From the NCBI GenBank assembly GCA_016933025.1, contig JAFGBT010000015.1, positions 78,064 to 142,063 of the forward strand: DNA of 64,000 bases, in the 5' to 3' direction. This document shows, one piece after another, positions 2,800 through 62,783 of the stretch. The stretch comes from Spirochaetota bacterium (GTDB taxonomy: Bacteria > Spirochaetota > UBA4802 > UBA5550). Numbering within the stretch: the first letter of the stretch is position 1; each line of letters opens with the position of its first letter. The translations under genes were made by a program, and so were the position numbers. The notes under the pieces are model-generated. The model ran no database searches. It was given only the letters and a program-made list of their open reading frames with translations, and was not told the origin of the DNA.

Positions 2800-2813
2800 C
2801 TGATAGTTATCTG
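2800..2813. repeat. Degenerate copy (12/14) of the dyad motif CCGATAGTTATCGG (ctgatagttatctg).
   Basis: Read directly. Sits 7 bp from a perfect copy. Confidence 0.5.
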
Positions 2814-2820
2814 TTGAGAG

Positions 2821-2834
2821 CCGATAACTATCGG
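2821..2834. repeat. Dyad motif CCGATAACTATCGG (minus orientation of CCGATA-GT-TATCGG).
   Basis: Exact 14-mer read in sequence. Lies upstream (-60 to -75) of the predicted RACo promoter. Confidence 0.6.
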
Positions 2835-2993
2835 GAAATATCAGCCATTGTACACAAGAAACAGGTGCGTATCGGACAATTTGTAATAAATGTCGATATT
2901 CGGGCCACTTTCGCTGGCATAAATCCATGCCGTATACCGTTCCCGGATGTTGATAATTTTTGTCCTGTCAAAAGTATCCTGTCCGCTATCCGA

Positions 2994-4760
2994 TCAAAAT
3001 ACTCCGGTCACCTTTCGTCGTTTGAGATCGACGTCTATCCTTCTGAATGCCGGGTCAGAGGCGGTGCCCGGCATAAGGCTGATGGCCCCGGCTACCGGCA
3101 CGACAAATCCGGCTCCGTGATAGGAGAGGATGTCCCGGACCGGAAGGACCCAGTTTTCGGGCACTCCTTTCAGGTTCGGATCGTGTGAGAGCGAAAGGTG
3201 TGTCTTGACCATGCAGGTGCCGAGCTTTGATATCTCCGGGTCACTATCCATCGTTTTAAGCTTCTCTTCGGCGTCCGGCAGATATTTCACGCCGCTGGCG
3301 CCGTAGACTTCCCTGGCGATGATCTCGATCCGCCTGGAGAGCGGTTCTGATAGATCATAGAGGAACTTGAAGTCTGTTTTATCTTCGCACGCATCGACGA
3401 CCGCGTCGGTGAGCTCGAGCGCTCCGTCTCCACCCTCCAGCCAGTGGCGGGATACGGCGACGCGAGCGCCGGCCGCCTCGGCCTGGCGCCTGATCATGTC
3501 GATCTCGGCCTTCGTATCGGTGGAGAAGGGGTTTATGCAGACAACCGGGTTGATGCCGGCTTTCTTCACGGTCCCGATGTGACGTATCAGGTTTGCACAC
3601 CCTTTTTCCACCAGGCCGAGGTTCTCCTCCATGTAAACGGGGTCGAGCGGGTGCCCCGGCGGGACCGGCGGGCCGCCACCGTGGCTCTTGAGGGCGCGGA
3701 CCGTGGCGACGATGACCGCGCAGTGCGGCTTCAGACCGCTCATACGGCACTTCAGGTTCCAGAACTTCTCGAAGCCGATGTCCGCCCCGAACCCGCTTTC
3801 GGTGACGTGGTAATCCGAAAGCTTCAGCGCGAGTTTGTCCGCGGCGATGGACGATTGTCCTATGGCTATATTTGCGAAGGGGCCCGCATGCACGAAGAGC
3901 GGCTGTCCCTCGAGCGTCTGCAATAAATTGGGCTTCAGGGTATTGAACATCCAGGCGGTCATGGCGCCGTCGACCTCGAGGTCGGCTGTGGTGATGGGGT
4001 CCCCGTTTTTGCTGCGGGCCATAACGATTTTGCCGATCCGCTCCCGCATGTCCGCCATGCTGCTCGATACGGCCAGGATCGCCATGAGCTCCGAGCTGGC
4101 GGCGATCTGGAACTTGGACTCCATGAGGAAGCCGTCCGTCGAGCCGCCCATGCCGATCATGATCTTCCTGAGTGACTGGGCGCAGAAGTCGATGACCCAT
4201 CCCATCTCCACGCTCCGCGGGTCTATGCTGAGCCGGCGGAGCCGCTTCGACGCGAGCATCGCGTTATCATAGTTGAATTCGTGCTGCATGCGCGCGGTGA
4301 GTGCAACCATCGCCAGGTTGTGGGCGTTCATAATGTCGTTGTTGTCGCCGGTGAGCCCGAAGGAGAACGGCACGAGCGGGATGCACTGCGACAGGCCTCC
4401 GCCGCCGGCGCTCCCCTTTATATTCATGGTCGGGCCGCCGGACGGCTGCCGTATAGCGCCGGTCGCCTTTTTCCCCCTTTTTCCCAGTCCCTGGAGGAGC
4501 CCGATGGTGGTTGTACTCTTGCCTTCGCCCAGGGGCGTCGGGGTTATGGCGGTAACGTCGATATATTTGCCGTCGGGCCTGTTCGCGAGGCGCTCCAGGA
4601 CTATCTCAAAGTCGACCTTGCCGTAGTAATGACCGTTGGGAAGGAGTTCCTCGTCGCGGATTCCCAGCTCGTCAGCGAGCCGGTACACGGTCTTCATCTT
4701 CTTCTCGCCTTCCTCGGCGATCTGCCAGTCCGGCAGTTTTCTTGGATCCGGTTTTTTCAC
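2994..4760 (-). CDS. fhs: Formate--tetrahydrofolate ligase.
   Basis: 588-aa ORF with strong family hallmarks ([36 protein letters not shown]). GTG start preceded by AGGA. Confidence 0.9.
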
Positions 4761-8367: not shown

Positions 8368-8432
8368 CCGGGGTCAGAGTAAAATGGGGAGTATTGACAC
8401 CGATAGTTATCGGTTGGCACCGATTACTATCG
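8368..8432. repeat. Composite element: CCGGGGTCAGAGTAA box (8368-8382), TTGACA, dyad motif CCGATAGTTATCGG (8400-8413), then a degenerate second copy caccgattactatcg.
   Basis: Read directly. The same two boxes co-occur at 31691-31741. Confidence 0.6.
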
Positions 8433-8499
8433 TATATTCTTTAATCAAGGAAAGATATAGCCGATATTTTTTATAAGAGAATATGGAGACACGTATGTT

Positions 8500-8895
8500 A
8501 TGATTAGCGCACTCAATTTAAAAGAATTCTCCGAAAAGTTTTCTTATAATGATCACCGAAAACATCTTTTTGATTTGTTCGTGGAAGAACTTGAATCGGT
8601 GAAGAAACAATGCGCCAGGCTGCGTGTCCTGATATTCGGAAGCTATATCACGTCAAAAAAGAAGCCGGGCGATATTGATGTGCTGATATCATTGATCCCG
8701 AACAAGGATTGCGTCTACAGAATCGTAACCAGGGGATTGCAACACAGGCATCCCAGAGAAGTCGATATACACTACTACAAGACCCAGCGGTATATTAAGG
8801 ATGCAGACGGCCTCATCAGGCATTTTAATAAAAATCGGATCAATGAGCTGAAGGGAGTGTCAATCAAAAAGGCGATAGAGATAAAGGATATATGA
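8500..8895 (+). CDS. Nucleotidyltransferase-fold (Pol-beta superfamily) small protein.
   Basis: 131 aa. LIFGSY...PGDIDVLISL matches the GS-x(n)-DxD NTase motif. Lies in an AT-rich segment. Confidence 0.5.
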   Translation: MISALNLKEFSEKFSYNDHRKHLFDLFVEELESVKKQCARLRVLIFGSYITSKKKPGDIDVLISLIPNKDCVYRIVTRGLQHRHPREVDIHYYKTQRYIKDADGLIRHFNKNRINELKGVSIKKAIEIKDI

Positions 8896-9750: not shown

Positions 9751-9952
9751 TATATGTTTCCATCATACAAGTATTTTTCCTATTTTGTCTGCGTATTATG
9801 TCTTGTGAATCAATTATCTGTCAAGAACTATGCGCAAGGTTAAAAATAGTACGGCAGTCAGTAAAATGCTTGCCGAAAGTGATGTGTCAGAGCAAGGCTA
9901 AAGGGTGCAGAGCGGACAAACAGGCACCTGAAAACTGGATAAATTATCCGGA

Positions 9953-11221
9953 GTGTATGATTTAATGAGCTATTTCAACAGCGGCACGGTCGAGGCAGTA
10001 CAGCGCTATCTGGAAAGGGGGATGCCCCGTTATCTTGATATCCTGAGCGACATGGTGGCCATTAATTCCTATACCCTGAATACTGCAGGGGTAAATCGCC
10101 TTGCCGCCTACACCGCCGGCGCGTTTAAAGAATTGGGATTTGCCGACGAGCAGATCCGGTCGACTGTCCCTGATTTCGGCAATCATCTGGCGCTGTCCAG
10201 GCCGGGAGGTTCTCCGATAGTTATCGGTTGCGTTTCACATCTTGATACCGTGTTCAGTCCGGAGGAGGAAGAGAGGAATGATTTCCGCTGGCGAGTCGAG
10301 GGGGACAGGGTGTATGGCCCCGGGACCATCGATATAAAGGGGGGCACGGTTGTGATGCTGATGACACTGGAGGCGATCAGGCATGCCGCGCCTGCGGTCT
10401 TCGACAAGGTCAACTGGACCCTTCTTCTGGACGCATCCGAGGAAATGGAATCCGATGACTTTGGTGCGCTCTGCTGCGATAGATTGCGCGCCCCGGCTTC
10501 GAATGGAGATACCCGGGCCTGCCTGGTCTTCGAGGCAGGCCTTTCGAGGGGGGGCAATTTCTACATGGTGGCCTCGCGGAAGGGCCGCGCCGAGTTGCGC
10601 ATAACGGTTGAGGGAAAGGGCGCGCATTCCGGCGTGGCGCACAGGAAGGGCGCCAGTGCCATCACCCAGATGGCCGATGTCGTACAGAGGCTCGAGGCCC
10701 TGACCGATTACGAGAAGGAGCTTACGGTAAACGTAGGAAGGATAGCGGGCGGGTCCCAGATCAATCGCGTCCCCCATTTCGCGGAGGCATTCGCGGAGAT
10801 GCGGGCGTTCGAGCCGGATGTTTTCGAGAAAGCGCTCGCTGACATAACGGCCCTCGACGGCCTTTCCGGCGTTGCCAGCGCTGACGGCGGTTTTTCATGC
10901 AGGACCGGGGTGGAGCTGGTACGCCGCGTGCCGGCGTGGCCGCACAACGAAGCGTCGGGTCGGCTCCTTGCACACTGGCAAGCCGCCGGTGAGCTCCTCG
11001 GCAGCAGGGTAATACTCGAGAAGCGGGGGGGGCTTTCGGACGGCAATTTCACCTGGGAGCAGGTGCCCACCCTTGACGGTCTGGGTCCGTCCGGCGGTAA
11101 TCCTCACTGCTCCGAGCATTCGGCCGACGGATCCAAGGAACAGGAATACGCAGTCGTCTCTTCATTTGTTCCGAAAGCCGTTCTCAACGCCATGGCAATT
11201 ATCAAAATTGCCGGAATGTAA
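9953..11221 (+). CDS. M20 family metallopeptidase (carboxypeptidase G2/ArgE/DapE-like).
   Basis: 422 aa. Motifs HLDTV, GPGTIDIKGG and EEMESDDFGA are typical of M20 peptidases. Confidence 0.8.
   Translation: MYDLMSYFNSGTVEAVQRYLERGMPRYLDILSDMVAINSYTLNTAGVNRLAAYTAGAFKELGFADEQIRSTVPDFGNHLALSRPGGSPIVIGCVSHLDTVFSPEEEERNDFRWRVEGDRVYGPGTIDIKGGTVVMLMTLEAIRHAAPAVFDKVNWTLLLDASEEMESDDFGALCCDRLRAPASNGDTRACLVFEAGLSRGGNFYMVASRKGRAELRITVEGKGAHSGVAHRKGASAITQMADVVQRLEALTDYEKELTVNVGRIAGGSQINRVPHFAEAFAEMRAFEPDVFEKALADITALDGLSGVASADGGFSCRTGVELVRRVPAWPHNEASGRLLAHWQAAGELLGSRVILEKRGGLSDGNFTWEQVPTLDGLGPSGGNPHCSEHSADGSKEQEYAVVSSFVPKAVLNAMAIIKIAGM
10214..10227 (+). repeat. Dyad motif CCGATAGTTATCGG inside the M20 peptidase CDS.
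   Basis: Exact 14-mer. In-frame translation is P-I-V-I-G. Confidence 0.6.
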
Positions 11222-13063: not shown

Positions 13064-13093
13064 CGTAGCCTTGGCTGAAAAGTGAATTATTAT

Positions 13094-13137
13094 GAAGGGC
13101 CTCTTGTTTCACTGACGAACGAGAGGCCCTTTTACTG
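13094..13137 (+). terminator. Rho-independent terminator after cstA.
   Basis: GGGCCTCT / AGAGGCCC 8-bp stem followed by a TTTT run. Confidence 0.5.
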
Positions 13138-13245: not shown

Positions 13246-14148
13246 ATGAAGCTACATGCCTCCGGTAAAATTCACGAGAGAATCCACGTGGCCGCCAATC
13301 TCGCATATCCCGCGTATATTATCAAAGGCGATTCCAAAAACGCGATGATCGAAGGTGGCTTCAATCTGCTCGGTCCGCTGTATCTTAAATCCGTTGACGA
13401 GATTCTGGGAGACCGGAACAGTCTTTCCTATATATTCATAACTCATTCCCATTATGATCACCTCGGCGCGGTCCAGTATTTGAAGCGCCATATCCCCCGG
13501 GTCAGCGTTGCCGCCCATGAGCGCGTCGGCGGTTTGTTGAGAAAGGAGTCCGCCCTTGCGTTGATGAACCGCCTGAGCGAAAATCAGCGTATACTGTTCA
13601 AGGACATTGCCGGCGACGAGGATCTCACGATCAGGCCGATGGATATTGACCTTCCGCTTGCGGAGGGCGACTCGTTTGACCTCGGCGGCCTTGTCTGCAC
13701 GGTTCTGGAGGTGCCGGGGCATACGAGGGATTCCCTCGCTTTTTACATCCCGGAGTTGAAGGCGCTCTTTCCGGGCGAGGCCGCGGGCGTTCCGCAGGGC
13801 CTCGACGGCAATGAGCCGCAGGTGGAGTTTCTGGCCTCATACGAGGATTATCTCGCATCTCTCGAAAAAATGATTGCTCTGACCCCTGAGATGCTCTGCA
13901 TCGGTCACGGCTGGGTGCTCACCGGCACTGACGCCTCCGAGTTTCTCCGTAAATCCTACGAGGCCACATTCGAGTATCGTAAACTGATCGAGCGTTATCT
14001 GGACGGCGCCGACGGCGACGTTGAATCGGCCATTCAGTCAATTGCCCGCGTTGAATACGATGAGAAGGGGACCATCTTCCAGGAGAGAAACGCCTATCTC
14101 ACCAACCTCGCTGCGCAGGTCAAACATATCGCGGGACTTAAGAATTGA
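13246..14148 (+). CDS. MBL-fold metallo-hydrolase.
   Basis: 300 aa. ITHSHYDHLGA (HxHxDH metal-binding motif). Confidence 0.8.
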   Translation: MKLHASGKIHERIHVAANLAYPAYIIKGDSKNAMIEGGFNLLGPLYLKSVDEILGDRNSLSYIFITHSHYDHLGAVQYLKRHIPRVSVAAHERVGGLLRKESALALMNRLSENQRILFKDIAGDEDLTIRPMDIDLPLAEGDSFDLGGLVCTVLEVPGHTRDSLAFYIPELKALFPGEAAGVPQGLDGNEPQVEFLASYEDYLASLEKMIALTPEMLCIGHGWVLTGTDASEFLRKSYEATFEYRKLIERYLDGADGDVESAIQSIARVEYDEKGTIFQERNAYLTNLAAQVKHIAGLKN

Positions 14149-17503: not shown

Positions 17504-17517
17504 CAGATAGTTATCCG
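17504..17517. repeat. Degenerate copy (12/14) of the dyad motif (cagatagttatccg) in the divergent LCCL/moxR promoter region.
   Basis: Read directly. Confidence 0.45.
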
Positions 17518-22559: not shown

Positions 22560-23626
22560 GTATGGCGGCCCCGGAGGCGCGTTCCCGTGAACGCGCCTCC
22601 GGGGCCGCGGTAAAAGGCATACGGATGATCCAATTCGGCAACTATACATATCTGGTCTACATCGTTTCGGTTTCTGCGGTGGTGATGGCGCTGTATGCCG
22701 CCTATCTCCTCTGGAAACGGCATGCGGTGGCGCTTATGCAGAGGGGCGTCGCGCGCGACCACCTGATCAGGGGCTCGCAGACTGTGGGGAAGATCAAAAG
22801 TGTCCTTATGGCCGTCTCAATCGCACTGTGCGCTCTGCTTCTTCTCAGGCCCCAGTGGGGCGAGCAGGTCAGGGAGGTTCACAGCGAGGGCTCCGATGTC
22901 CTCATCGCCCTGGATGTGAGTCCCAGCATGCTCGCGCAGGACGTTAAGCCGAGCAGGCTGCAGCACGCCAAGGACGCGGTGCGCTGGCTCGTGGAGTCGC
23001 TCAAAGGCGACCGGGTCGGGCTTGTGCTTTTTTCCGGCGACGCGTTTCTCCAGTGCCCTCTCACCAACGACTACGGCGCCTTCATGATGTTCCTGGACGC
23101 GGCGTCGCCCGACTCCATACATCTCAAGGGGACCGACATCGGCATGGCCCTGCGTCAGGCCTACCGCGTTTTCAAGGACAAGCGCCTTACCTCGCGAATG
23201 CTGGTGATCATAACCGATGGTGAAGATCACGAGGGCACGGCGGAGGAAGCGGCGAAGATGTTCCGCAAAATGGACGTGGCGGTCTACACGGTAGGCATCG
23301 GGACGGGGTCCGGTGAGGTGATCCCTGCGACGGGCGACGACGAGACCGCCGATAATTATTACCGCGACGGCTCGGGGAAGCTGATAAAGACAAGAAAAGA
23401 CGCCTCGTTTTTAAAGAGAATCGCGGGTCTAACTCGCGGCGCTTACATCGACATATCGGGGAGTTTTTCCGATCTCAGCTTCATTATCGGCATCATCAAT
23501 GACCAGCGCCGCAACGAATACGGATCCCGGATTATTAAGGAACCCCGCGAGCATTATCAGATTTTCACCCTCCTCTTGATCATGCTCCTTTCGCTCGAGC
23601 TGATGCTTCCTGAGCGGAAATGGTGA
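22556..23626 (+). CDS. batB: vWA-domain aerotolerance protein BatB.
   Basis: Paralogous to BatA. vWA MIDAS motif DVSPSM. C-terminal TM helix. The true start may be the internal Met at 22625. Confidence 0.8.
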   Translation: MSMAAPEARSRERASGAAVKGIRMIQFGNYTYLVYIVSVSAVVMALYAAYLLWKRHAVALMQRGVARDHLIRGSQTVGKIKSVLMAVSIALCALLLLRPQWGEQVREVHSEGSDVLIALDVSPSMLAQDVKPSRLQHAKDAVRWLVESLKGDRVGLVLFSGDAFLQCPLTNDYGAFMMFLDAASPDSIHLKGTDIGMALRQAYRVFKDKRLTSRMLVIITDGEDHEGTAEEAAKMFRKMDVAVYTVGIGTGSGEVIPATGDDETADNYYRDGSGKLIKTRKDASFLKRIAGLTRGAYIDISGSFSDLSFIIGIINDQRRNEYGSRIIKEPREHYQIFTLLLIMLLSLELMLPERKW

Positions 23627-24835: not shown

Positions 24836-25020
24836 ATGGGGCTGTCTCGCATCCCCCCTAAATCCCCCGAAGGGGGACTTTAAAGAATTAAGAACTGAAA
24901 AGCCCCCCTCTGGGGGGTGGGGGGTGTCGCAAGCTATATTTAGGACAGTCCCGTGTCATGGCGAGCGCACCCTTCGACTCCGCTCAGGGTAAACTCCGTC
25001 GAGGCAGGCGACGCCATCTT
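24836..25020. repeat. Intergenic repeat: poly-C/G hairpins (CCCCCGAAGGGGG, CCCCCCTCTGGGGGG), then a REP-like unit gtcatggcgagcgcacccttcgactccgctcagggtaaactccgtcgaggca.
   Basis: Related units at 41205-41370 and 56150-56240 share the ccttcgac...gctcagg(g/a)taaactccgtcgaggca core. Confidence 0.55.
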
Positions 25021-25035
25021 GATTGGGAATAAAAC

Positions 25036-31690: not shown

Positions 31691-31741
31691 CCGGGGTCAG
31701 AGTAACGGGTTCCCGATAGTTATCGGTTACTCTGACCCCGG
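31691..31741. repeat. 51-bp nested inverted repeat: CCGGGGTCAGAGTAAC, spacer gggtt, dyad motif CCGATAGTTATCGG (31713-31726), then GTTACTCTGACCCCGG.
   Basis: Arms are exact reverse complements, read directly. Shares the CCGGGGTCAGAGTAA box with 8368-8382. Confidence 0.65.
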
Positions 31742-39245: not shown

Positions 39246-39694
39246 AGCCCGTAGTCGCCGAGATCTGCATCTATGCACCGGCTGGCAAGGTCTGGGACAT
39301 CATCACCGACTTTGACCGTTATCCAGTCTGGAACACCTTCACGCCCCGCATTACGCTTGCAACCTCCGGGTTCACCGTTGGCGCTGAATTCGACCTTGAC
39401 TGCAGGATGAACGGCCGTCGGCTCCTCAAGGATGAACGGGAGGTCATCCTCTCCGTTGAACCCGATAACTATCGCTTCGCCATGGGGACCTCGCGCACAC
39501 GCGGAAGGCCGGGCATCAGGAGTTTCCGATGGCAGACCTGCGAGCCGATGTCCGGCGGCCGCACACGCTTCATCAACAGCGAGGAATTTCATGGCCCGCT
39601 TGCGCCTCTGGTGTATGCCCTGTACGCGAGGCAATTGCGGGCCGCTTTCAAAAGGTACTGCCTGGACCTGAAAGAATATGCCGAGCTGCGGTAG
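39242..39694 (+). CDS. SRPBCC (Bet v1-like/polyketide cyclase) family protein.
   Basis: ATGA overlap with the mtnA stop. ~150 aa with the expected length and pattern of the SRPBCC fold. Confidence 0.6.
   Translation: MKPVVAEICIYAPAGKVWDIITDFDRYPVWNTFTPRITLATSGFTVGAEFDLDCRMNGRRLLKDEREVILSVEPDNYRFAMGTSRTRGRPGIRSFRWQTCEPMSGGRTRFINSEEFHGPLAPLVYALYARQLRAAFKRYCLDLKEYAELR
39462..39475 (+). repeat. Dyad motif copy (13/14, ccgataactatcgc) inside the SRPBCC CDS.
   Basis: In-frame translation is P-D-N-Y-R. Confidence 0.5.
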
Positions 39695-41204: not shown

Positions 41205-41370
41205 ATGATTGTCGTCATCACGAGCGCAGCGCCCTTCGATGGAGCCTGTGGTGAGCCTGTCGAACCACTCAGGGCGACACTTCATTTGTCATGCCGAGCC
41301 CTTCGACTAAGCCTGTCCCGAGCGTAGTCGATAGGCTCAGGATAAACTCCGTCGAGGCATGTTTCGTCGT
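41205..41370. repeat. Two tandem degenerate REP-like units of the PFDSAQGKLR/FDKL hairpin family.
   Basis: Unit 1: tcatcacgagcgcagcgcccttcgatgg...ctcagggcgac. Unit 2: gtcatgccgagcccttcgactaagcctgtcccgagcg...ggctcaggataaactccgtcgaggcatg. Confidence 0.55.
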
Positions 41371-41428
41371 CCCGATTTTATCGGGACTCCCCGCAATGAT
41401 AATCCGGTCCATTAATTTTTTATAATTA

Positions 41429-42007
41429 TTATCTCAGTCCGGACAAATCGCTATCTTTCCCGTTCATTCCGCTCCATTCTGAAAGGAAGAAAAGATAAAA
41501 TGCGGTGACGATTATGGAGTGGTTTATGGGTCCGCGGCGGATCATATCCATGATTTCATCCCGTTCGAATGTTAGGACCTCTATGTCCTCGGCCGGATCG
41601 AGGTCCTGGTTGTGGATCCTGACGCAGTTCGGCGCAAAATAATAATAGATGTAATTGTCGAAGATCGCGGGGTTGACGCTCAGCTTCTTGAGGAGATGCA
41701 GCTCTTTCGCCTCGTAGCCGGTCTCCTCGCGAAGCTCCCGCCGGGCGGTTTCCTCCGGGGATTCACCAGGCTCGATGAGGCCGCCCGGTGTTTCAATGGT
41801 GATTTCGTCAGTGCCGAGCCGGTGCTGGCGTACCATGATAAAGCGGTGATCGTCGGTCAGGGCGACTATGTTGATCCAGTCAGGCGTGCTGAGGGTGAAA
41901 AACCTGTGTGTGAAGTCTTTGCCGGGGTGGTAGCATTCAACGTCCTTCACGGCGAAAATTCTTCTCCGGTACAGTTCTTCCTCTGATTTTTTTATCCATC
42001 TCTTCAT
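41429..42007 (-). CDS. NUDIX hydrolase (ADP-ribose pyrophosphatase-like).
   Basis: Nudix box GGLIEPGESPEETARRELREETGY. Start placed at MKRWIK. The upstream extension of the ORF looks non-coding. Confidence 0.75.
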   Translation of the reverse strand: MKRWIKKSEEELYRRRIFAVKDVECYHPGKDFTHRFFTLSTPDWINIVALTDDHRFIMVRQHRLGTDEITIETPGGLIEPGESPEETARRELREETGYEAKELHLLKKLSVNPAIFDNYIYYYFAPNCVRIHNQDLDPAEDIEVLTFERDEIMDMIRRGPINHSIIVTAFYLFFLSEWSGMNGKDSDLSGLR

Positions 42008-42189
42008 GCCCTGTGTCCCCGTTCGCCCCGGGCTGCGCGCAGGAGCGCGCCACCCGGCGCGTTGATTAAAATATTTATAATACAGTAAAAAATATATTGC
42101 TATGAGGCAAGAAATAAATAATAGTTGGATGATATCGCGAAAACGCAATCAGGTGTCTCCCGGCCCGCCCATTATTCTGGAGGACTGCC

Positions 42190-45103: not shown

Positions 45104-45583
45104 ATGAGGCCGAGTATAGTATCTTCTCTGGCGTTGATCGTTCCGCTGCTGATGTCGTGCGGCTCGCAGGGCGGCACGCCGGTTATATATACGAACCCCA
45201 GGTGCGCGGTTTTCACCGAAGGGTTTCCCGACGCGCCGATGTGCACCTACGCGCCGTTCGTGCCGGAGTTGAAGGACATAATCGCGGCGGATAAAATTGT
45301 GGCCGAAAAAATTGCGCGTGATCACCCGCGTTCCTCGATTTGCCGGAGCTACAGGAAAAACAGCTGGGCGGACTACATCCGTCAGTGCGTCGGCATAATA
45401 AATGAAAAGGGCGAGCCCCTCCTCTGGATGAATTATATCTGCGCCGGATCGCGCGAGGACACAACGGGATACTGGAAGAAGAAGATTGTCTACGTTATGG
45501 GCGGCGGGGAATGCTATTTCAGCGGTTCGGTCAACCTCGCCTCCAGGCGATGCGAGATCCTCATTCTCAACAGTGCGCGCTAA
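45104..45583 (+). CDS. Hypothetical lipoprotein.
   Basis: Lipobox LMSCG. 159 aa. Confidence 0.5.
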   Translation: MRPSIVSSLALIVPLLMSCGSQGGTPVIYTNPRCAVFTEGFPDAPMCTYAPFVPELKDIIAADKIVAEKIARDHPRSSICRSYRKNSWADYIRQCVGIINEKGEPLLWMNYICAGSREDTTGYWKKKIVYVMGGGECYFSGSVNLASRRCEILILNSAR

Positions 45584-45607: not shown

Positions 45608-45621
45608 CCGATAACTATCGT
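45608..45621. repeat. Dyad motif copy (13/14, ccgataactatcgt) directly preceded by TTGACA. Lies in the promoter region of the downstream hypothetical gene.
   Basis: cacTTGACAaaccgataactatcgtgtcatacc read directly. Confidence 0.5.
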
Positions 45622-45685
45622 GTCATACCACGAAGGGGGGCGCTTGCGGCTGACGCAGCGCAGGGCCATGGGACCGGAAGCAAAC

Positions 45686-46126
45686 ATGCAGATACGTCTC
45701 AATGATTTTGTCCGAGAGATGGCGGCGCTCGCCAGCCGGGGGTCGCACTTCGGCACTGACACCGGCGGCCGCTACATCGATCCGTGGGAAATGAACTACC
45801 GCCGCGTCGGTTTTTATGCGAACAGGTTCGTTACCAGGGACTTCGGAGATGATTCATGCGTTCGGATATTTGTTCCCGCAACCGAGACCGGCGTGGCGCC
45901 GTCGGAGGGCGAACAGCCCTTCGGCTGGAGCGGAAAGATCAACGAGCACTCGGCTGAGCTCGCGGTCTGGTGGGCCTTCGAGCTGTTCAGCGAGGGCGAG
46001 GCCCGGGCGTTTATGAGGGAACAACGGCCCGCGGTACTGTTTCAGTATATGGAGGGCGGAGCGCTCCATGAGGTGGAGGCCCGCTTCAACGGGGAGATCT
46101 GGATCGTGGAAAAAACCTCGCTCTGA
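45686..46126 (+). CDS. Hypothetical protein.
   Basis: 146-aa ORF with coding-like composition. No recognisable domain. Confidence 0.45.
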   Translation: MQIRLNDFVREMAALASRGSHFGTDTGGRYIDPWEMNYRRVGFYANRFVTRDFGDDSCVRIFVPATETGVAPSEGEQPFGWSGKINEHSAELAVWWAFELFSEGEARAFMREQRPAVLFQYMEGGALHEVEARFNGEIWIVEKTSL

Positions 46127-52637: not shown

Positions 52638-54577
52638 TGAAAATGACCGACATCCTCATCATCGCGGTGCTGTTGTGCCTTCCGCTCTCCCTGTACGGGA
52701 AAGAGCGGACCCTGACCGTCGTGCACACCAACGATATGCATTCGCATCTCCTGGGGTACCCGCCGACCATTGACTACACGCCGATGTCGACGGGCGACGA
52801 CGGCACCGCAGGAGGCTGGGCACGGATTGCGACCGTCATCAGGCAGATCAGGGCCGAAAGAAGCAATCCGGTCCTGCTGGTTGACGGCGGCGACTTTCTG
52901 ATGGGGACCCTGTTCCACGTAATATCCCGCGAACGCTCGGTGGAGCTCGGGCTTATGCGCGAAATGGGATACGACATGATCACGCTGGGGAACCACGAGT
53001 TCGATTTGAGGCCCGCCGGCCTCGCGCGTATACTCCGCGCAGCGGAGCGGAACGGGGGACTTCCGCCCATGGTGGCCTCCAATGTTATATTTGATCCAAC
53101 GGATGATAGAGACAATACCCTCGAGGAAGTATTCAGGTCGGGTCTGGTGCGGCCATACCGGGTCGTCGTGAAAGACGGGATTACAGTAGGCTTTTTCGGC
53201 CTGATGGGGAAGAACGCTGCCGAGGTCGCCCCGTTCGCGACGCCGGTGACCTTCGGCGATCCGGTTGCGGTCGCGCGTGAGATGACCGCCCTCCTGAGGG
53301 AGAAGGAGAAGGTCGATGTCATCATCTGCCTGTCTCACTCCGGCCTGGTTCCCGGCAAGCCTGCCATATCAGAGGATGTGAAGCTCGCCCGCAAGGTGCC
53401 GGGCATCGACATCATTATCAGCGCTCACACGCACACGCCTCTGGCCCGGCCGATCGTCGAGGGCGATACCGTCATCGTCCAGGCCTGGTACAACGGCAAG
53501 TGGGTGGGCGTGCTTGACCTGTCGCTCGACGCCGGGCGTCCGGCGCTTAAAAAATACCGGATCATCGAGATCAACGATACGATCAGGGGCGATGCCCGCC
53601 TCACGTCCCTCATTGATGGCAATAAGGGCGAGATAAGCCGGGCGCTGCTGGCGCCGCTCGGGCTCGCCTTCGACTCGATCATCGCCGAAACGGCTTTCGA
53701 TCTGGCCATTGGCGAGGATGAGACGAATCTCGGCAACCTGATAGCCGACGCAAGCCGCTGGTATGTCAACAGGTTTGCGTATGATCCTCATGACCCCGCC
53801 ACGCGCGTGGCGGTAGCCTTTGATTCCAACGGGCTTATCAGGGACCCGGTGGCAAAGGGGAAAACCGGGAAGGTGGGGGTGTGCGACCTGTTCAGCGCCC
53901 TCCCGCTCGGGATCGGCGAGGATGACACCATCGGGTATCCCATGGTCGCGGTCTACCTGAATGCCGCGGAAATCAAGAAGGCGCTCGAGGTCGCCACAAG
54001 CATTTACCCTCTCAGGGGAGGCGATTATTTCTTACAGGTTTCGGGCCTCAGGTACCGGTACAATCCGTACCGAATGATTTTTGACCGGGTGACCGGGATT
54101 GATCTCGGCGACGAGACAGGCGGCTACCGGCCCCTGGATTATTCTGAATCAAACAGGAGCCTCTACCGGATCACCGCCAATATGTACAACGCCACCTTTC
54201 TGAAAATCGTCGGTGATTTTACCCTGAATATCCTGAATATAGTCCCCAAGGACCGGAACGGGAAACCGATCAAGGACCTCGCGGAGGCCCTCGTTGACGC
54301 CGACCCGGACAGGCCCGGGGTGCAGGAGGTCAAGCAGTGGGTCGGGTTGGTTGAATACGTGCGGGGGTTCAGGGACCTTAACGGCAACGGCCGCCCGGAT
54401 ATCCCCGGGGCCTATCGCGCGAAGCTCGGCCGCATCCTGAGCGAGCCGAGCCTTTGCCCGGTTGCGCTCCTTAAGCGGGGCAACTGGCTGACCTGGATCG
54501 GGTTCGGGATAGTTATCGGTGCATGCGCGGTGGTTGCCGTTGCCGCGATTGTCGTCGTGAGGAAAATCAGGAAATAG
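52637..54577 (+). CDS. Bifunctional metallophosphatase / 5'-nucleotidase with C-terminal membrane anchor.
   Basis: Signal peptide. VVHTNDMHSHL, GNHEFD, C-terminal 5'-nucleotidase domain. Terminal TM helix. Confidence 0.8.
   Translation: MKMTDILIIAVLLCLPLSLYGKERTLTVVHTNDMHSHLLGYPPTIDYTPMSTGDDGTAGGWARIATVIRQIRAERSNPVLLVDGGDFLMGTLFHVISRERSVELGLMREMGYDMITLGNHEFDLRPAGLARILRAAERNGGLPPMVASNVIFDPTDDRDNTLEEVFRSGLVRPYRVVVKDGITVGFFGLMGKNAAEVAPFATPVTFGDPVAVAREMTALLREKEKVDVIICLSHSGLVPGKPAISEDVKLARKVPGIDIIISAHTHTPLARPIVEGDTVIVQAWYNGKWVGVLDLSLDAGRPALKKYRIIEINDTIRGDARLTSLIDGNKGEISRALLAPLGLAFDSIIAETAFDLAIGEDETNLGNLIADASRWYVNRFAYDPHDPATRVAVAFDSNGLIRDPVAKGKTGKVGVCDLFSALPLGIGEDDTIGYPMVAVYLNAAEIKKALEVATSIYPLRGGDYFLQVSGLRYRYNPYRMIFDRVTGIDLGDETGGYRPLDYSESNRSLYRITANMYNATFLKIVGDFTLNILNIVPKDRNGKPIKDLAEALVDADPDRPGVQEVKQWVGLVEYVRGFRDLNGNGRPDIPGAYRAKLGRILSEPSLCPVALLKRGNWLTWIGFGIVIGACAVVAVAAIVVVRKIRK
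54506..54519 (+). repeat. Dyad motif copy (12/14, gggatagttatcgg) inside the 5'-nucleotidase CDS.
   Basis: In-frame translation is G-I-V-I-G. Confidence 0.45.
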
Positions 54578-55162: not shown

Positions 55163-55248
55163 CGTGACCTCCGGTTATTGCATCTTATCAGCAGTGACTA
55201 TGGGACACCGGCAGGGATCCGGCAAGCAAAAAGTGCCGGGCAGGTGTG

Positions 55249-56045: not shown

Positions 56046-56059
56046 CCGATAGTTATCGG
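56046..56059. repeat. Dyad motif CCGATAGTTATCGG (intergenic).
   Basis: Exact 14-mer. Confidence 0.6.
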
Positions 56060-56149: not shown

Positions 56150-56240
56150 TTGCTTGTGCTGAACCCTTCGATAGTTCGACAAGCTCACTACGCCGCTTCG
56201 CTCAGGACAGGCCTGTCGAAGCATCCGCAGTGACATGACA
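56150..56240. repeat. REP-like hairpin unit of the FDKL family (cccttcgatagttcgacaagctcac...gctcaggacaggcctgtcgaagc).
   Basis: Shares the ccttcga...gctcagg core with 24950-25020 and 41205-41370. Confidence 0.5.
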
Positions 56241-56451
56241 CATCAGGAAGGATCCGGCAAGCAAAAAGTTCTGGACATGGGGGGAATTTCAAAAATCATA
56301 GATTGAGTTGAGTTTTTTAGCATTTCGCAATGCCGCCGGTTGTCCCGATCAGGGGTCATAGTAGGCCCTGGCGGCAAAAAAAGTCCCGGTGCACGGACAT
56401 TTTTTTGTGCATTTTATCATTCATTTAAAACATTATAAATAGGAAGACGGA

Positions 56452-59049: not shown

Positions 59050-61074
59050 ATGATCATGATCGCAAAGAAATATTCCTATATCGCGATGGTCCTTTTTGCC
59101 CTGATGATGCCGGCCGTTGCGAGAGGGGCGGACTGGCCCGTATACAAGGGTAATATCTTCTACACGGGAAACAATGACGAGATCACCGTGAAGAACAACA
59201 ATCTCAAGTGGCTCTTTCAGGCCTCGGACACGGTTTTTAATCCGATTATCTCCGACGGCATGGTCTATTTTGTCGATATGAAAAAAAACGTCTACTGCCT
59301 TGAGGAGGAATCGGGAAAACTCAAATGGAAGATAAGCCTCACCGAGCTTTCGAAGCGGTTCCTCCCGAGCGTGAAGTCGGCCGGCAAGGTGAAATATCCC
59401 CTGGTCAAAGACCACCGACTCATCCTGACCGATAATTTCGTCATCTACTGCCTGGATAAAAGGAGCGGCAGGGTCCTCTGGGCCCGTACCGGCATGAGGG
59501 ACGAAAAGGAGCTGTTCGACCGTGACAGCGACTACAACAAGAAAACCCCGACCTGGGGACCGGGGGTAAAAAACTGGGACCCGACAAAGCACTCAACCAC
59601 GCTGGTGGACGGCATTTACTCAGACCCCGTTATTCGGGGCGACATGATCTACTACGGCACGCGCAATGTCTTCATCTCCCGGGAGATAGAGCAGGGGCAC
59701 CTGAAATGGGACAATAAAAACGTCAAATCCTGGAGCGGGTTCCCCTCGTTTTATGATGATTATATATTCACCCAGTCCATGGATTACACAAAGAACGCCT
59801 ATGCCCTCTACTGCCTGGACGCGAACACCGGCGCGACACGGTGGAGCAATTCCATAACCAAACCGGTCCGGATTTTTTCTCCGGTGGTGTATCAGGGGAG
59901 GGTCTACCTCGCCGCCGGGAGCGTGCTGCACTGCTTTAATCTCTCCGACGGCGCGAAGATCTGGGCGAAGGACTACGGCAACATTATAACCTCAAACCCG
60001 AGCTTCACCGAGCGCGAGATCCTGTTCACCACCGGGAACAGGCAGGTCGTAATTATCAATCCGCAGAGCGGCGGCATCGCCTTCGCCATCGATCTCGGGG
60101 AGAAGTCGAGCCCCTATTTCGTGACGATCCGCGACCAGATATACCTCGCCAGCACCTTCAAGAAGTGTGTCGGCGGCCGCGATCTCTCCTACGCTTCGCT
60201 CCGGGCCCTCAGGTTTGGCGGTAAGAACGCGCTCTGGGAGTTCGTCCCGCCGTTTCCCGGCGGCGCATACCAGCCGGCCGCGTCCGGGGGGATCATGTTC
60301 GTCCCGGCGGCGAACTATCTCTATGCCGTAGGCACCGACTATTATTCGCGCATTATCGACGGCGGGAGCGCGATATACGACCCGTATAACAGGCATGACG
60401 ACGGTACCGTCGTCCCCGACAGGGGGGCGGCCGGTAAAAAGGAAACGAGCAAGGAGCAGGATAAAAAGAATGATCTCCGGAAAATAAGGATCACGGTCAA
60501 GGATAAAGAAGGCAACCACGTAAAGGCGAACGTCGACATCAGAAAATGGGACCGCGGCAAGGTCGTGTATTCTGATCGGAAAACAATAAGCGGGTCCTCC
60601 CGGGATATCGACGTGCCCGATGCCGACGACGTGGAGATAACGGCCGATGCCGACGGCTACGTGCCGAAGAAGGTGATCATATCGCGCGATGACAAGGAGA
60701 AGTCCATCACCCTGGACAGGATCGAGAAGGGGAAGGGGATTGTGGTCGAGAACATACACTTCGAGATCGACGAGGCGTATCTCCTGAAAGAGTCGCTCAA
60801 TGTCCTCGACCGGATGATCGACGCGATGAAGCGAAACCCGAGGATAAAACTCGAGGTGCGGGGCCATACCGACATTACCGGCACCCATGCCCATAACATG
60901 AAGCTCTCCGAACGAAGGGCGGACGCTGTCAGGGAATACATGATAAAGAACGGCATCAGCCCGGAGCGGCTCGTGGCGATCGGGTTTGGTCCGGATCGAC
61001 CGATTGCGGATAACAAAACCGGGGAGGGCCGGAGGCTGAACAGGCGGACTGAATTTTATATCCTCGACAAATAG
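59050..61074 (+). CDS. PQQ-like beta-propeller repeat protein with C-terminal OmpA-family peptidoglycan-binding domain.
   Basis: AGAGAGGA RBS. Signal peptide. Repeated W/Y-containing blades. C-terminal NIHFEIDEAYL...LSERRADAV...NRRTEF OmpA motifs. Confidence 0.75.
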   Translation: MIMIAKKYSYIAMVLFALMMPAVARGADWPVYKGNIFYTGNNDEITVKNNNLKWLFQASDTVFNPIISDGMVYFVDMKKNVYCLEEESGKLKWKISLTELSKRFLPSVKSAGKVKYPLVKDHRLILTDNFVIYCLDKRSGRVLWARTGMRDEKELFDRDSDYNKKTPTWGPGVKNWDPTKHSTTLVDGIYSDPVIRGDMIYYGTRNVFISREIEQGHLKWDNKNVKSWSGFPSFYDDYIFTQSMDYTKNAYALYCLDANTGATRWSNSITKPVRIFSPVVYQGRVYLAAGSVLHCFNLSDGAKIWAKDYGNIITSNPSFTEREILFTTGNRQVVIINPQSGGIAFAIDLGEKSSPYFVTIRDQIYLASTFKKCVGGRDLSYASLRALRFGGKNALWEFVPPFPGGAYQPAASGGIMFVPAANYLYAVGTDYYSRIIDGGSAIYDPYNRHDDGTVVPDRGAAGKKETSKEQDKKNDLRKIRITVKDKEGNHVKANVDIRKWDRGKVVYSDRKTISGSSRDIDVPDADDVEITADADGYVPKKVIISRDDKEKSITLDRIEKGKGIVVENIHFEIDEAYLLKESLNVLDRMIDAMKRNPRIKLEVRGHTDITGTHAHNMKLSERRADAVREYMIKNGISPERLVAIGFGPDRPIADNKTGEGRRLNRRTEFYILDK

Positions 61075-61112
61075 GGGCGGAGGTCGGATCGGCACGAATC
61101 CCCCCTTTTTTA

Positions 61113-61508
61113 TTATTTCTCCGAGGTGTAGAATGCGTTCTCGCTTTTTGTTTCCAGATCGGGCCTCAGCTTTTTCGCGCCGTACAGGTAGACATGGGTC
61201 ATTTCGTCCTGGCGACGGTCGGAATTAACGTGGAGCAGGACCCTGATGCAGCTCTTCAGGCTCCCGGGCACGCTGATTTCAAGGGCGCAGAAGAGGGGCG
61301 TGTATAGCCATCCCAGCTGACGGGCCGCGACGGCCGGGAATTCAGCGTTCAGGTCATCGGTCACGGAAAACGTGGCGGAGGCGATATCCTCCACCCGTAT
61401 GTCGTTCAGCTTAATGATCCTTTCAAGGAGCTCTTTCGTTTTTGCGACGATCTCGCCCTTCGTGTTTGATCCGGCAGTTGTGGCACCCCGTATTCCCCGT
61501 ATCGCCAT
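61113..61508 (-). CDS. aroH: Chorismate mutase, AroH class.
   Basis: N-terminal IRGIRGATT signature. 131 aa. Confidence 0.8.
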   Translation of the reverse strand: MAIRGIRGATTAGSNTKGEIVAKTKELLERIIKLNDIRVEDIASATFSVTDDLNAEFPAVAARQLGWLYTPLFCALEISVPGSLKSCIRVLLHVNSDRRQDEMTHVYLYGAKKLRPDLETKSENAFYTSEK

Positions 61509-61511
61509 AGC

Positions 61512-62783
61512 TCACTCCATCAGCGTAATATCGGCCCCGATGGACTTCATCAGGTCCGGAAAATTCGGAAAGGTCACCGAAACCGATTCCGCGGTTTCGA
61601 TGCGGGTCTCTCCTTCGGCGGCAAGCCCCGCCACGGCCAGTGCCATGGCGACCCTGTGATCATGGTGCCCGTTCACCCGGCACCCCTTGAGGCCGCTCTT
61701 TTTGATGACGAGGCCGTCAGGGAGCTCCTCGACACGCGCCCCCATTTTTTCCAGCTCTTCGCGCATCACGCTGATCCGGTCGGTTTCCTTGAGCCGCGCC
61801 TGCGGGACGTTGGCGAGGCGCGTTTCGCCCTCGGCGAAGCAGGCGGCCACGGAAAGCGCGGGCAGCGAGTCGGGCATGGCATTGAGGTCGAACGTGCCGC
61901 CGGCGAGCCTGCCGCCCCGCACGGATATTGAGCGTTCCCCGATCTCGATTTCCGCCCCCATTTTCTTTAGAATGGTCACCACCTCTTTGTCCCCCTGGGT
62001 GTCGTTGAAATCAAGGCCCTGGAGCGTCAGAGCGGAGCCGGTGATCGCCGCCGCCACCAGGAAAAAGGTCGCGGATGAAAAGTCGACCGCGATCTCCTCC
62101 CGGAAGGAGGGATAGTTCTGGCCTCCCGGTATGGAAAATGACCGATAGTTATCGGTCGTGTAGCGTATGCCGAGGCGATCCAGCCAGCCGAGGGTCATGG
62201 TAACGTACGGCCTCTCGTTGAGGAGGGGCACGTCGATCACCGTGTCCCGGCCGGCAAGGGGGGCGGCGATCAGCAGCGAGGTGAGGTACTGGGACGTCAC
62301 CGCGCTGATCTCCGTGGCGCCGCCCTCTATCCTTCCCTTCACCACGACCGGCGGCATGCCGTTACCCCTGGTGGAGAAAGCGCGGCCGCCCAGGCGGTTT
62401 ATCGATTCCATGAGGCCGTCCGCGGGCCGGCTGCGGATCTGGTGGTCCCCGGTGAACACGGTATGGCCGTTTGCCAGGGACGCGATCCCCAGGCCTATGT
62501 AGAGCGACGTTCCGGAGTTGCCGACGTCCACGATGTCGTCCGGCACCGCCGGCTCGCCGCCGGTACCGGCCACGATCCAGGCCGCTTCCCCCTCTGTCAC
62601 CCGGGCGCCGAATTTCCGTATCATGGCGAGGCAGGAGCGCGTATCCGAAGAATCAAGGGGGCGCCCGATCGTCGACTCGCCGCTTCCCAGAAGGCCGAGG
62701 ACCAGCGCGCGGATGGTGTGCGATTTTGACCCGGGGACGGCAAGAGATCCTCGCAAGGAAGATGGCTTTACTGCAAATTCCAT
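61512..62783 (-). CDS. aroA: 3-phosphoshikimate 1-carboxyvinyltransferase (EPSP synthase).
   Basis: 423 aa. LPGSKSHTIRAL and DHRVAMALAVAGL motifs. Confidence 0.9.
   Translation of the reverse strand: MEFAVKPSSLRGSLAVPGSKSHTIRALVLGLLGSGESTIGRPLDSSDTRSCLAMIRKFGARVTEGEAAWIVAGTGGEPAVPDDIVDVGNSGTSLYIGLGIASLANGHTVFTGDHQIRSRPADGLMESINRLGGRAFSTRGNGMPPVVVKGRIEGGATEISAVTSQYLTSLLIAAPLAGRDTVIDVPLLNERPYVTMTLGWLDRLGIRYTTDNYRSFSIPGGQNYPSFREEIAVDFSSATFFLVAAAITGSALTLQGLDFNDTQGDKEVVTILKKMGAEIEIGERSISVRGGRLAGGTFDLNAMPDSLPALSVAACFAEGETRLANVPQARLKETDRISVMREELEKMGARVEELPDGLVIKKSGLKGCRVNGHHDHRVAMALAVAGLAAEGETRIETAESVSVTFPNFPDLMKSIGADITLME
62140..62157 (-). repeat. 18-bp extended dyad GACCGATAGTTATCGGTC inside aroA. 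A partial copy (gggatagttctgg) lies 30 bp upstream.
   Basis: Exact. Translates as T-D-N-Y-R-S on the gene strand. Confidence 0.6.

Follow-up and report, generated by a model that had tools for sequence, protein, structure and literature searches.

An oriented 16-bp quasi-palindrome shared across a spirochete lineage: candidate docking site of a DNA-binding protein

Why would a bacterial chromosome carry the same short, oriented inverted repeat a dozen times in 64 kb, both between genes and within unrelated ones? The question is raised by a 64,000-nucleotide (nt) stretch (contig JAFGBT010000015.1, positions 78,064 to 142,063; hereafter the window) from a metagenome-assembled genome (MAG) of an uncultivated spirochete (Spirochaetota), which in its gene content is ordinary chromosome. 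We refer to the repeat as S, a 16-bp oriented quasi-palindrome of the form aCC-GAT-W-GTT-ATC-GGt (aCCGATAGTTATCGGt), whose core is the 14-mer CCGATAGTTATCGG. A preliminary description of the window, made from its sequence alone, had pointed out the 14-mer and offered several candidate explanations, among them a site for a global regulator or nucleoid protein. It is this candidate that the evidence presented here favours, tentatively: S would be the docking site of one sequence-specific protein that binds double-stranded DNA (dsDNA) and has a global or architectural role. In the following, we describe how often S occurs, what is conserved in it, how it is arranged in related genomes, and which other explanations compete with this one. 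Literature searches for S, its companion word X and their variants matched only unrelated primers.

An over-represented word conserved as DNA

The eleven positions listed in the preliminary description all hold the motif at the coordinates given, and its over-representation is beyond doubt. Six copies of CCGATAGTTATCGG in the window are exact (2821-, 8400+, 10214+, 31713+, 56046+ and 62142+), where none is expected and where 100 dinucleotide-preserving shuffles of the window yielded none. Allowing up to two mismatches adds six further copies, namely 39462(-) and 45608(-) with one mismatch, 2800(+), 17504(+) and 54506(+) with two, and a degenerate one at 8420(-), which had not been noticed before. 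The 10-nt core GATWGTTATC is found 11 times against an expectation of 0.19. Matches at 6585 and 52278 lack this core and were set aside as probable chance hits; a partial copy previously proposed at 62110 (GGGATAGTTCTGG) is weak and gained no further support. The mixture of intergenic and intragenic copies described earlier is real and strongly skewed: 9 of the 12 copies lie outside called genes, although non-coding DNA makes up just 13.6% of the window (p = 2e-6). A second word, which we call X (GGGTCAGAGYAA) and which was not part of the preliminary description, is likewise over-represented, with 6 copies against 0.39 expected.

With 12 copies in 64 kb and none in the 8.8 kb beyond the right end of the window, the local density of S is about one per 6 kb. 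A genome-wide density of about one per 5-6 kb is an extrapolation from these ~73 kb and from four loci of relatives that had been picked around genes containing an S site. No larger repeat was found around S in the window, where it is a self-contained 16-mer; membership in a larger repeat, which would have made the motif mundane, is thus not what was found.

To define the word, 189 copies were aligned, drawn from the window, from its relatives and from metagenome loci of high GC. Only the 16 positions a-CC-GAT-W-GTT-ATC-GG-t carry information, which falls to ~0 bits elsewhere, without any GTAG-type tetranucleotide flank among these copies. The right half is better kept (G 95%, G 93%, T 81%) than the left (C 74-75%, A 40%), and the two halves are therefore not equivalent. 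The asymmetric centre, which had been reported as conserved, proves to be so: among all CGAT-NNNN-ATCGG words, scanned on both strands, AGTT/AACT accounts for 232 counts and TGTT/AACA for 48 (about 280 together), compared with 0 for the symmetric centre AATT and 3 for AGCT. The left arm departs from CC in 50-58 copies in which the right arm stays GG, the pairs that are kept being chance-level T-G wobbles only, and no compensatory changes between the arms are seen. An isolated S hairpin is weak (-5.6 kcal/mol). Since the arms lack a pairing constraint, the centre is asymmetric and fixed, and the hairpin is weak, we conclude that S is conserved as a sequence and not as a stem-loop.

The genic copies show that this conservation is a matter of DNA. 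Family searches confirmed three of the four host genes proposed earlier, an M20 peptidase, a 5'-nucleotidase and aroA (Pfam), but not the SRPBCC protein said to contain the copy at 39462, where no Pfam match appears even at E = 0.5; this copy may be either intergenic or inside an open reading frame (ORF) without a family match. At the S site, the M20 family is variable (GKKIG, GRAIG, DRTIG and others), with PIVIG in a subset of close relatives and PITIG in two, and these two peptides are the translations of both orientations of S in one frame. The orthologous M20 site is exact in locus L123, flipped in L248 (CCGATAACTATCGG, PITIG) and decayed in L125 (CCGATTGTGATCGG). Likewise, the DNYR peptide of aroA is found in close relatives only, in a loop that is otherwise variable across the family, and an exact S occupies the same position in L250 (77% amino-acid identity, GC 48.5%). 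In these gene pairs, codon identity at identical amino acids is just 39-49%. Because the protein families are otherwise variable at both sites, it is the DNA and not the protein that is conserved there. As a 14-16-nt word cannot be inserted in-frame, the genic copies must have arisen by substitution and, judging from these comparisons, they are kept, or repeatedly regenerated, at the DNA level.

These results bear on two earlier suggestions. Descent of all copies from a common sequence, which the oriented centre had been taken to indicate, finds no support, as the flanks of the 189 sites carry ~0 information beyond the 16-mer and the genic copies arose by substitution. The codon phase shared by the genic copies does hold within the window, yet it is not a special property of S: the wider clade uses all four stop-free frames (PIVIG, PITIG, DNYR and DSYR), and the shared phase is thus explained by stop avoidance and a small sample.

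The behaviour of the genic copies also recalls DNA uptake sequences, and S might accordingly be a 'self' tag that is spread by molecular drive, like the uptake sequences of Neisseriaceae and Pasteurellaceae. A receptor at the surface or in the periplasm would then prefer DNA bearing S, and recombination would disseminate it, also into those parts of genes that tolerate it. S is found lineage-wide, on both strands and also in genes, and its genic copies lie at poorly conserved residues where the peptide follows the word, as Findlay and Redfield described for uptake sequences (PMC2817400); the comM-like and prepilin peptidase genes in the window lend this idea weak support. Known uptake sequences, by contrast, are not palindromic and do not form phased head-to-tail arrays of up to nine copies, the estimated density of S is 4-6 times lower than theirs, and its intergenic excess is very strong. 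In addition, this uncultivated lineage is not known to be competent, and the companion word X would be left unexplained. We therefore regard an uptake tag as unlikely.

Arrays in related genomes and a putative reader

S is common to the whole lineage and not peculiar to one genome. The homologues of the M20 peptidase at ~70% identity come from syntenic loci of other Spirochaetota, one of them in a 4.8-Mb genome, and these loci carry 8-9 copies of S per 21 kb, which answers the earlier proposal to look for the word in relatives. Syntenic relatives with S have ~70-77% amino-acid identity and a GC of 48-57%, and the GC of further contigs that bear the motif ranges from 37 to 62%. In the relative L250, a second region that is not syntenic has S as well. 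Intergenic homes are often shared, namely upstream of the symporter gene, upstream of the M20 gene, in the spacer between CstA and the lactamase-fold gene, and around FTHFS, where the number, spacing and exact position of the copies vary. A comparison of orthologous sites gives a divided answer: the M20 and aroA sites recur in relatives, the former in decayed form in L125, whereas intergenic copy number and position differ between relatives. In near-identical strain pairs (L125/126/127, L168/175, L177/211, L210/216), the spacing of S sites is identical. A protein search with CstA against genome contigs returned only one non-syntenic Spirochaetota MAG, in which the motif is absent.

For a broader view, metagenomes were searched for two copies of S 30-60 bp apart, which gave at least 120 stretches; in 2.9 million viral contigs, the same pattern has no match. 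Of the metagenome loci listed, about half have a GC of 47-62%, resemble the clade of the window and carry non-tandem pairs with X words, and a few loci with S and X among the matches listed have a GC of 37-44%. Gene calls in these loci are crude longest-ORF calls, and Pfam was consulted for key convergent cases only.

Two sets of matches were put aside as different phenomena. Single 14-mer matches in viral contigs are due to chance, apart from repeats in L096 (1702-3301) and L001 (2527-3162) that were taken as unrelated. At a GC of ~44%, these contigs have the same stem with different centres (CCGATAGCTATCGG, CCGATAACTATCGG) in GGGACTATCGGG-type repeats, which resemble cyanobacterial repeats and appear to be unrelated to S. 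The low-GC half of the metagenome matches, with its variable centre and CCC/GGG flanks, was left out of all inference about the window. In these loci (GC <0.46, within L129-L244), tCCCGATAG(T/C)TATCGGGa occurs almost only in perfect tandem repeats, which in no fewer than 33 of 60 loci directly adjoin genuine tRNA genes with a wide range of specificities (for example L195 140-510, L204 3905-4451, L218 3121-3327, L241 1231-1535 and L154 581-790). The repeat unit is a copy of the 5' part of the tRNA and its upstream spacer, with the palindrome in place of the D-loop. One of these loci, L204, was assigned to Bacteroidota via the names of HipA homologues and shows the same 12-nt core in an unrelated usage; a description of such tRNA-adjacent, D-loop-replacing tandem repeats was looked for and not found.

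Within the lineage, S is arranged in a regular geometry. In syntenic relatives, S typically forms head-to-tail pairs with a spacing of 59-61 bp, in AT-rich DNA bordered by X words. The distances between direct copies fall into groups at 21-22, 42-43, 52-53 and 61-65 bp, with Rayleigh p ~1e-6 for periods of 10.5 and 21 bp in an analysis that drew partly on loci selected for a spacing of 42-72 bp, the range set by the search pattern. Pure S arrays have a period of 21-22 bp and reach nine copies, whereas (S-X)n arrays have one of 42-43 bp; S-X-S-X arrays with periods of 42-43 and ~53 bp are found in L209, L238, L239, L146 and L248. Linkers within arrays outside the window measure 5-50 bp and bear X. 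In relatives, X, which beyond the window is also seen in L123 and L125, prefers positions ~20 bp upstream and 23 bp downstream of S and is found in both orientations. Neighbouring copies of S are direct in 105 cases and inverted in 20, and 7 of 14 convergent (+-) pairs are 17-21 bp apart.

By contrast, the gene context of S is broad. Among intergenic regions that measure 100 bp or more, those with S make up 43% of the tandem, 31% of the divergent and 39% of the convergent ones; the convergent homes include the msrAB/DUF2007 spacer (L148, L210) and sites next to DUF2064 genes (L220, L234), with the gene calls in both cases confirmed by Pfam. The 43 genes that begin up to 250 bp downstream of S comprise 58 different Pfam families, and no gene family recurs beside S arrays beyond orthologous neighbourhoods. 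The operator of a single regulon was rejected on these grounds, as the neighbouring genes are heterogeneous, the distances to -35 elements and start codons vary, and S also lies between convergent genes. A replication-oriented bias of the KOPS or Chi type was rejected as well: the 37:20 ratio of S orientations relative to GC skew that includes orthologous loci becomes ~20:15 (a hand tally) without them and is not significant.

Several of these features argue for recognition of dsDNA by one protein: S is a long, near-invariant quasi-dyad word with an obligatory asymmetric centre, its arms are free of a pairing constraint, it persists across distant relatives of differing base composition, its genic copies are conserved at the DNA level, and its spacings hold the sites on one helix face. 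Because its contexts are so broad, extending over unrelated genes, promoters, promoter-free spacers and gene interiors, the role would be global or architectural and not that of one regulon. We infer from this both that a protein reads S and what this protein may do. Given the near-dyad form of S, the putative reader would be a dimer, and the invariant off-centre G together with the stronger right half suggests that it would read the two halves unequally. It would occupy single sites, head-to-head pairs at 17-21 bp, and head-to-tail arrays at 21, 42, 52-53 and ~63 bp, where the sites would lie on one helix face and often beside X. Candidate roles are nucleoid organization, boundary formation or insulation, and repression acting at a distance, comparable to proteins of the Noc, ParB and KorB type or of the CodY type.

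A number of observations weigh against this proposal. Near-perfect sites at about one per 5-6 kb are more uniform and more numerous than those of typical global regulators, and no regulator gene lies consistently beside S, nor did the neighbouring genes yield a candidate binder. Copy number differs between loci with homologous genes: near the hydrolase gene, the window has one copy, L186 has five following it, and L193 and L225 have two nearby. Similarly, nine units of a 21-bp S repeat (L205 8753-8930) contrast with three (L187 146-200) before genes for similar secreted proteins, the likeness of which was judged by inspection of the N-terminal signal and early mature sequence, without an alignment; this looks like an S array of variable length within a promoter region. 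It is also classic for repeats of the REP (repetitive extragenic palindromic), BIME (bacterial interspersed mosaic element) and NIME (Neisseria intergenic mosaic element) type to form mosaic arrays with a second word, and part of the spacings were preselected, as stated above. Moreover, of 31 cases in tandem gene pairs, 24 have the S array nearer to the stop codon of the upstream gene (p = 0.003), and the AC centre reads along the direction of transcription in 22 of 30 (22:8, p = 0.016); both biases count against a purely DNA-level symmetric binder, as such a binder predicts neither.

The last two biases suggest instead that S may act in the transcript or at the 3' ends of transcription units, either as a small RNA hairpin (ACCGAU-AACU-AUCGGU) that would stabilize or process mRNA 3' ends, or as the DNA site of a polar roadblock protein that would end transcription where there are few intrinsic terminators. 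The presence of S between convergent genes fits this idea. So does the finding that the first 20 kb hold 30 terminator-like hairpins, not clearly more than the 20.9 +/- 5.2 expected by chance, and that a canonical terminator fills the CstA-lactamase spacer of the window where relatives have mosaics of S and X. However, compensatory changes are lacking and the left arm frequently fails to pair, the hairpin is weak and has no U-tail, S is also found in either orientation at divergent promoters and well inside genes, one spacer of L125 holds both a terminator-like hairpin and S copies, and no Rfam family matches. An action in the transcript or at its 3' end thus appears decidedly unlikely.

The variable copy number points in another direction, namely to S as a short inverted-repeat module of an intergenic mosaic repeat, as in the Neisseria dRS3/NIME or the REP/BIME systems; S would then be read by a dedicated recombinase or transposase (IS110-type, phage integrase or RAYT). 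The length of an array would change as units are gained and lost through recombination or insertion at S, and a function in the cell, if any, would be secondary. S has inverted arms of 6-7 bp in a unit of 16-20 bp, its head-to-tail arrays have variable spacers that carry the second repeat X, its number differs beside homologous genes in different loci, and it is found between convergent genes and near stop codons. The density estimated for S is comparable to that of dRS3, which is 20 bp long with inverted repeats of 6 bp at its ends, numbers ~700 copies in 2.2 Mb and forms arrays of 200-2700 bp with RS units (PMC3898611). Within the window, a DUF6932 gene adjoins an S pair at a junction where relatives have none, and a higBA pair together with an S copy lies between 43-nt direct repeats. 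On the other hand, there is no homology beyond the 16-mer, isolated copies sit in unique DNA, and the in-frame copies in conserved genes cannot be insertions. With its invariant centre, S persists across relatives of ~70% amino-acid identity and a wide range of GC, whereas REPs change between species and the dRS3 centre is N8. A GTAG-type flank and compensatory changes are lacking, no transposase, integrase or RAYT gene was seen in the window or among the 43 neighbouring proteins, and near-identical strain pairs have the same S spacing. On balance, we consider the mosaic-repeat explanation doubtful.

Lastly, ~12 copies in 64 kb resemble a parS cluster, and S could in principle be a centromere or another region-specific landmark such as matS or ram; that it is a 16-bp palindrome with genic copies conserved at orthologous positions would agree with this. 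In L219, an array of seven 22-bp S units (410-560) lies in a convergent spacer, 170 bp past the 3' end of an orphan gene for a ParA/MinD-type ATPase (712-1455); no ParB-like ORF was seen at this locus, and an association with ParA was not found in other loci. Against such a role stand the lack of parAB, of canonical parS and of a GC skew switch in the window, the non-recurrent ParA association, the presence of S in more than 50 metagenome stretches of differing gene neighbourhoods as well as in the second region of L250, and the head-to-tail arrays in AT-rich intergenic DNA. We consider a centromere highly improbable.

If the docking-site proposal holds, with several hundred near-perfect 16-bp sites per genome and one reader, this reader would be a major and so far unrecognized organizer or regulator of the chromosome in a clade of widespread anaerobic spirochetes with the Wood-Ljungdahl pathway, which are known only from digester, aquifer and sediment metagenomes. 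More speculatively, and in our view doubtfully, S and X together might be the cis-element of a previously unrecognized genome-wide protein-DNA system, acting as a boundary or roadblock at the ends of transcription units or as an uptake self tag outside Proteobacteria. Independently of its function, S could serve, by virtue of its length and specificity, as a lineage marker in binning and in tracing the exchange of DNA, and it provides a clean case of a DNA signal that overrides protein sequence, with PIVIG or PITIG in one block of residues and DNYR in a second.

Copies of S and X in the window and their surroundings

The window encodes components of the Wood-Ljungdahl pathway (RACo, FTHFS), peptide and amino-acid uptake systems, peptidases, a BatA-D/MoxR operon, aroA and chorismate mutase, as well as two-component proteins, a higBA pair, an extracytoplasmic function (ECF) sigma factor, a comM-like protein and a prepilin peptidase. 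Its proteins include no ParAB, transposase, integrase or Cas domains that we could see, and it contains no tRNA genes, no canonical parS, no GC skew switch and no match to an Rfam family; Rfam matches are also absent at the S arrays in 19 loci. The copies of S are the following.

2800-2813, plus strand: S copy CTGATAGTTATCTG, two mismatches; left half of a head-to-head pair with 2821, 21 bp
2821-2834, minus strand: exact S copy; right half of the head-to-head pair with 2800
8400-8413, plus strand: exact S copy directly 3' of TTGACA, in the divergent region between the symporter and DUF6932 genes
8420-8433, minus strand: degenerate S copy ACGATAGTAATCGG, head-to-head with 8400, 20 bp
10214-10227, plus strand: exact S copy within the M20 peptidase gene, coding for PIVIG
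17504-17517, plus strand: S copy CAGATAGTTATCCG in the divergent region between an LCCL-domain gene and the moxR/bat operon
31713-31726, plus strand: exact S copy 22 bp past the stop codon of an alpha/beta-hydrolase gene and ~125 bp upstream of the comM-like gene
39462-39475, minus strand: S copy GCGATAGTTATCGG in a 456-bp stretch between convergent mtnA-like and prepilin-peptidase genes
45608-45621, minus strand: S copy ACGATAGTTATCGG, 27 bp past the stop codon of ORF 45104-45583 and 2 bp past a TTGACA
54506-54519, plus strand: S copy GGGATAGTTATCGG within the final 70 nt of the 5'-nucleotidase gene, coding for GIVIG, at a convergent gene junction
56046-56059, plus strand: exact S copy between the divergently oriented higBA toxin-antitoxin pair and ECF sigma factor gene
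62142-62155, plus strand: exact S copy within aroA (a minus-strand gene), coding for DNYR

Several intergenic copies lie 40-85 bp upstream of promoter-like sites of the form TTGACA-N16-17-TAnnnT, namely those of RACo, the symporter, LCCL and higB. The pair at 2800/2821, between FTHFS and RACo, is ~40-70 bp upstream of TTGACA-N17-TACTAT before RACo, and the copy at 56046 is ~85 bp upstream of TTGACA-N17-TACATT before higB. The TTGACA hexamers noted earlier in front of two copies are indeed there, and one S copy is placed between a -35 element and the start of an ORF. Convincing sigma-54 promoters were not found downstream of S sites. At 8400, the symporter is of the Na:alanine type, and the symporter gene of L123 has an S-S pair upstream; LCCL genes with S up to 250 bp upstream are recurrent among the metagenome loci. 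The copy at 45608 lies upstream of ORF 45668-46126, and neither flanking ORF matches any family. The ORF that follows this copy was considered as a binder of S and rejected, as it has no family match and nothing in its sequence resembles a DNA-binding protein.

The companion word X, two copies of which lie inside genes, has these positions in the window.

8371-8382, plus strand: X, GGGTCAGAGTAA, 18 bp upstream of S at 8400
9884-9895, plus strand: X-like, GTGTCAGAGCAA, upstream of the M20 gene
13874-13885, minus strand: X, GGGTCAGAGCAA, within a metallo-beta-lactamase-fold gene
31694-31705, plus strand, and 31727-31738, minus strand: X pair flanking S at 31713
59616-59627, minus strand: X-like, GGGTCTGAGTAA, one mismatch, within a PQQ/OmpA gene
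31691-31742, no strand assigned: composite inverted repeat CCGGGGTCAGAGTAAC-(S)-GTTACTCTGACCCCGG, arranged as X(+)-S-X(-), with S at the hairpin tip

The last of these, a 52-nt X-S-X inverted repeat, has a folding energy of -34 to -36 kcal/mol (z = -5 to -6). Relatives have the arrangement X-X-S-S-X upstream of the M20 gene, where the window lacks the S pair.

Some further features of the window were noted. The DUF6932 gene (nucleotidyltransferase-like, 8500-8895), which adjoins the S pair at 8400/8420, sits between the symporter gene and a thymidylate-synthase-like gene in the window only, as compared with L123 (7068-7327) and L125 (8570-8578); at this junction, relatives have an X-S-S-X module or no spacer, which suggests that the gene may have been inserted at an S module. 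The S copy at 56046 lies with higBA on a 1035-bp segment flanked by 43-nt direct repeats (55200-55242 and 56235-56277, 79% identical), which looks like a cassette insertion. The CstA-lactamase spacer of the window (13085-13135) lacks S and has a terminator hairpin of canonical form, GGGCCTCT...AGAGGCCC with TTTT after it, whereas the same spacer in L248 (5300-5504) and L125 (13097-13471) holds three S copies interleaved with X words. Directly upstream of the RACo start codon, a 44-bp near-perfect palindrome (2701-2744, AACTATATTACTATATCAAGAT / ATATTGATATAGTAATATAGTT, 95% complementary) overlaps the -10 element of the predicted RACo promoter and resembles a separate operator.

The window holds two more repeats. 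A perfect 20-nt inverted repeat with a 4-nt gap (22565-22608, GCGGCCCCGGAGGCGCGTTC / GAACGCGCCTCCGGGGCCGC) lies at the junction of two genes for VWA-domain proteins (BatA/BatB-like), and a non-coding 43-nt repeat, GCTCAGGrTAAACTCCGTCGAGGCA..., occurs in two copies with 79% identity, one upstream of a TPR gene (24982-25024) and one downstream of a NUDIX gene (41335-41377; the gene is on the minus strand, 41429-42148).

Comparison with known systems

S had been described as neither CRISPR, nor HIP1, nor a classical miniature inverted-repeat transposable element (MITE), and it indeed belongs to none of these. A CRISPR array has direct repeats of 23-50 bp with unique spacers of similar length between them and is accompanied by cas genes; S is dispersed in the window, where cas domains are absent, and where it does form arrays in other loci, the linkers vary from 5 to 50 bp and contain X. 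A MITE is longer than 50 bp, with terminal inverted repeats and a target-site duplication, whereas S shows no homology beyond 16 bp. HIP1 (GCGATCGC) of cyanobacteria is a symmetric 8-mer that contains GATC, occurs about once per 0.3-1 kb and is linked to DNA methyltransferases. Like S, it is a lineage-wide over-represented palindromic word that is found in and between genes and has long been maintained; S, however, is 16 bp long, asymmetric, ~10 times rarer and without a GATC.

The sites of ParB (parS), Noc (NBS), SlmA (SBS), MatP (matS) and KorB (OB) are palindromes of 13-16 bp that are read by dimers as near-perfect matches, lie both within and between genes, are maintained at orthologous positions and keep no fixed distance to promoters. 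S is similar to them in that its sites are near-perfect and palindromic, occur in and between genes, and are kept at orthologous positions. These systems have 4 to ~80 sites per replicon, usually with symmetric centres and not in head-to-tail arrays, and their proteins are known; S, by contrast, has an estimated several hundred sites per genome, an obligatory asymmetric centre and a putative reader. It is also distinct from parS proper, with no TGTTNCACGTGAAACA-type site, parAB genes or skew switch in the window.

REPs and their composite BIMEs share with S the extragenic palindromic units after stop codons and between convergent genes, the mixed clusters and copy numbers in the hundreds. They are, however, 20-40 nt long, with a stem in which pairing is kept and a GTAG-type tetranucleotide, they alternate in orientation within BIMEs, and they differ between species. 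S is 16 bp long, shows no compensatory change or conserved flank, is mostly direct (105:20) and is stable across genera, and it is not strictly extragenic, as exact copies within the M20 peptidase gene and aroA are conserved in relatives.

The uptake sequences DUS and USS resemble S in their lineage-wide over-representation on both strands and in genic copies at poorly conserved residues (PMC2817400). They are non-palindromic 9-12-mers at ~1 per kb without phased direct arrays, whereas S, a 16-bp quasi-palindrome, occurs at ~1 per 5-6 kb, forms arrays and is strongly enriched between genes.

Among mosaic repeats, dRS3/NIME is similar to S in its units of 16-20 bp with 6-7-bp inverted arms and in its hundreds of mainly intergenic copies, a number that for S is an estimate (PMC3898611). 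Both form head-to-tail arrays with variable spacers from other repeat families, here X, and in both the size of the arrays varies between relatives. The centre of dRS3 is variable (N8), whereas that of S is invariant and asymmetric. Furthermore, dRS3 is confined to Neisseria and is a known target of phage and IS110-type integration, whereas S has no linked recombinase: neither an integrase nor a prophage junction was found at S in the loci read, and paired S is absent from the viral contigs. S, in turn, is common to relatives of ~70% amino-acid identity and differing GC, and it is found in-frame in genes at conserved positions.

Taken together, S is akin both to lineage-wide over-represented words recognized by proteins and to intergenic mosaic repeats, and it stands out among them by its length, its obligatory asymmetry, its conservation across genera and its clear override of protein sequence.

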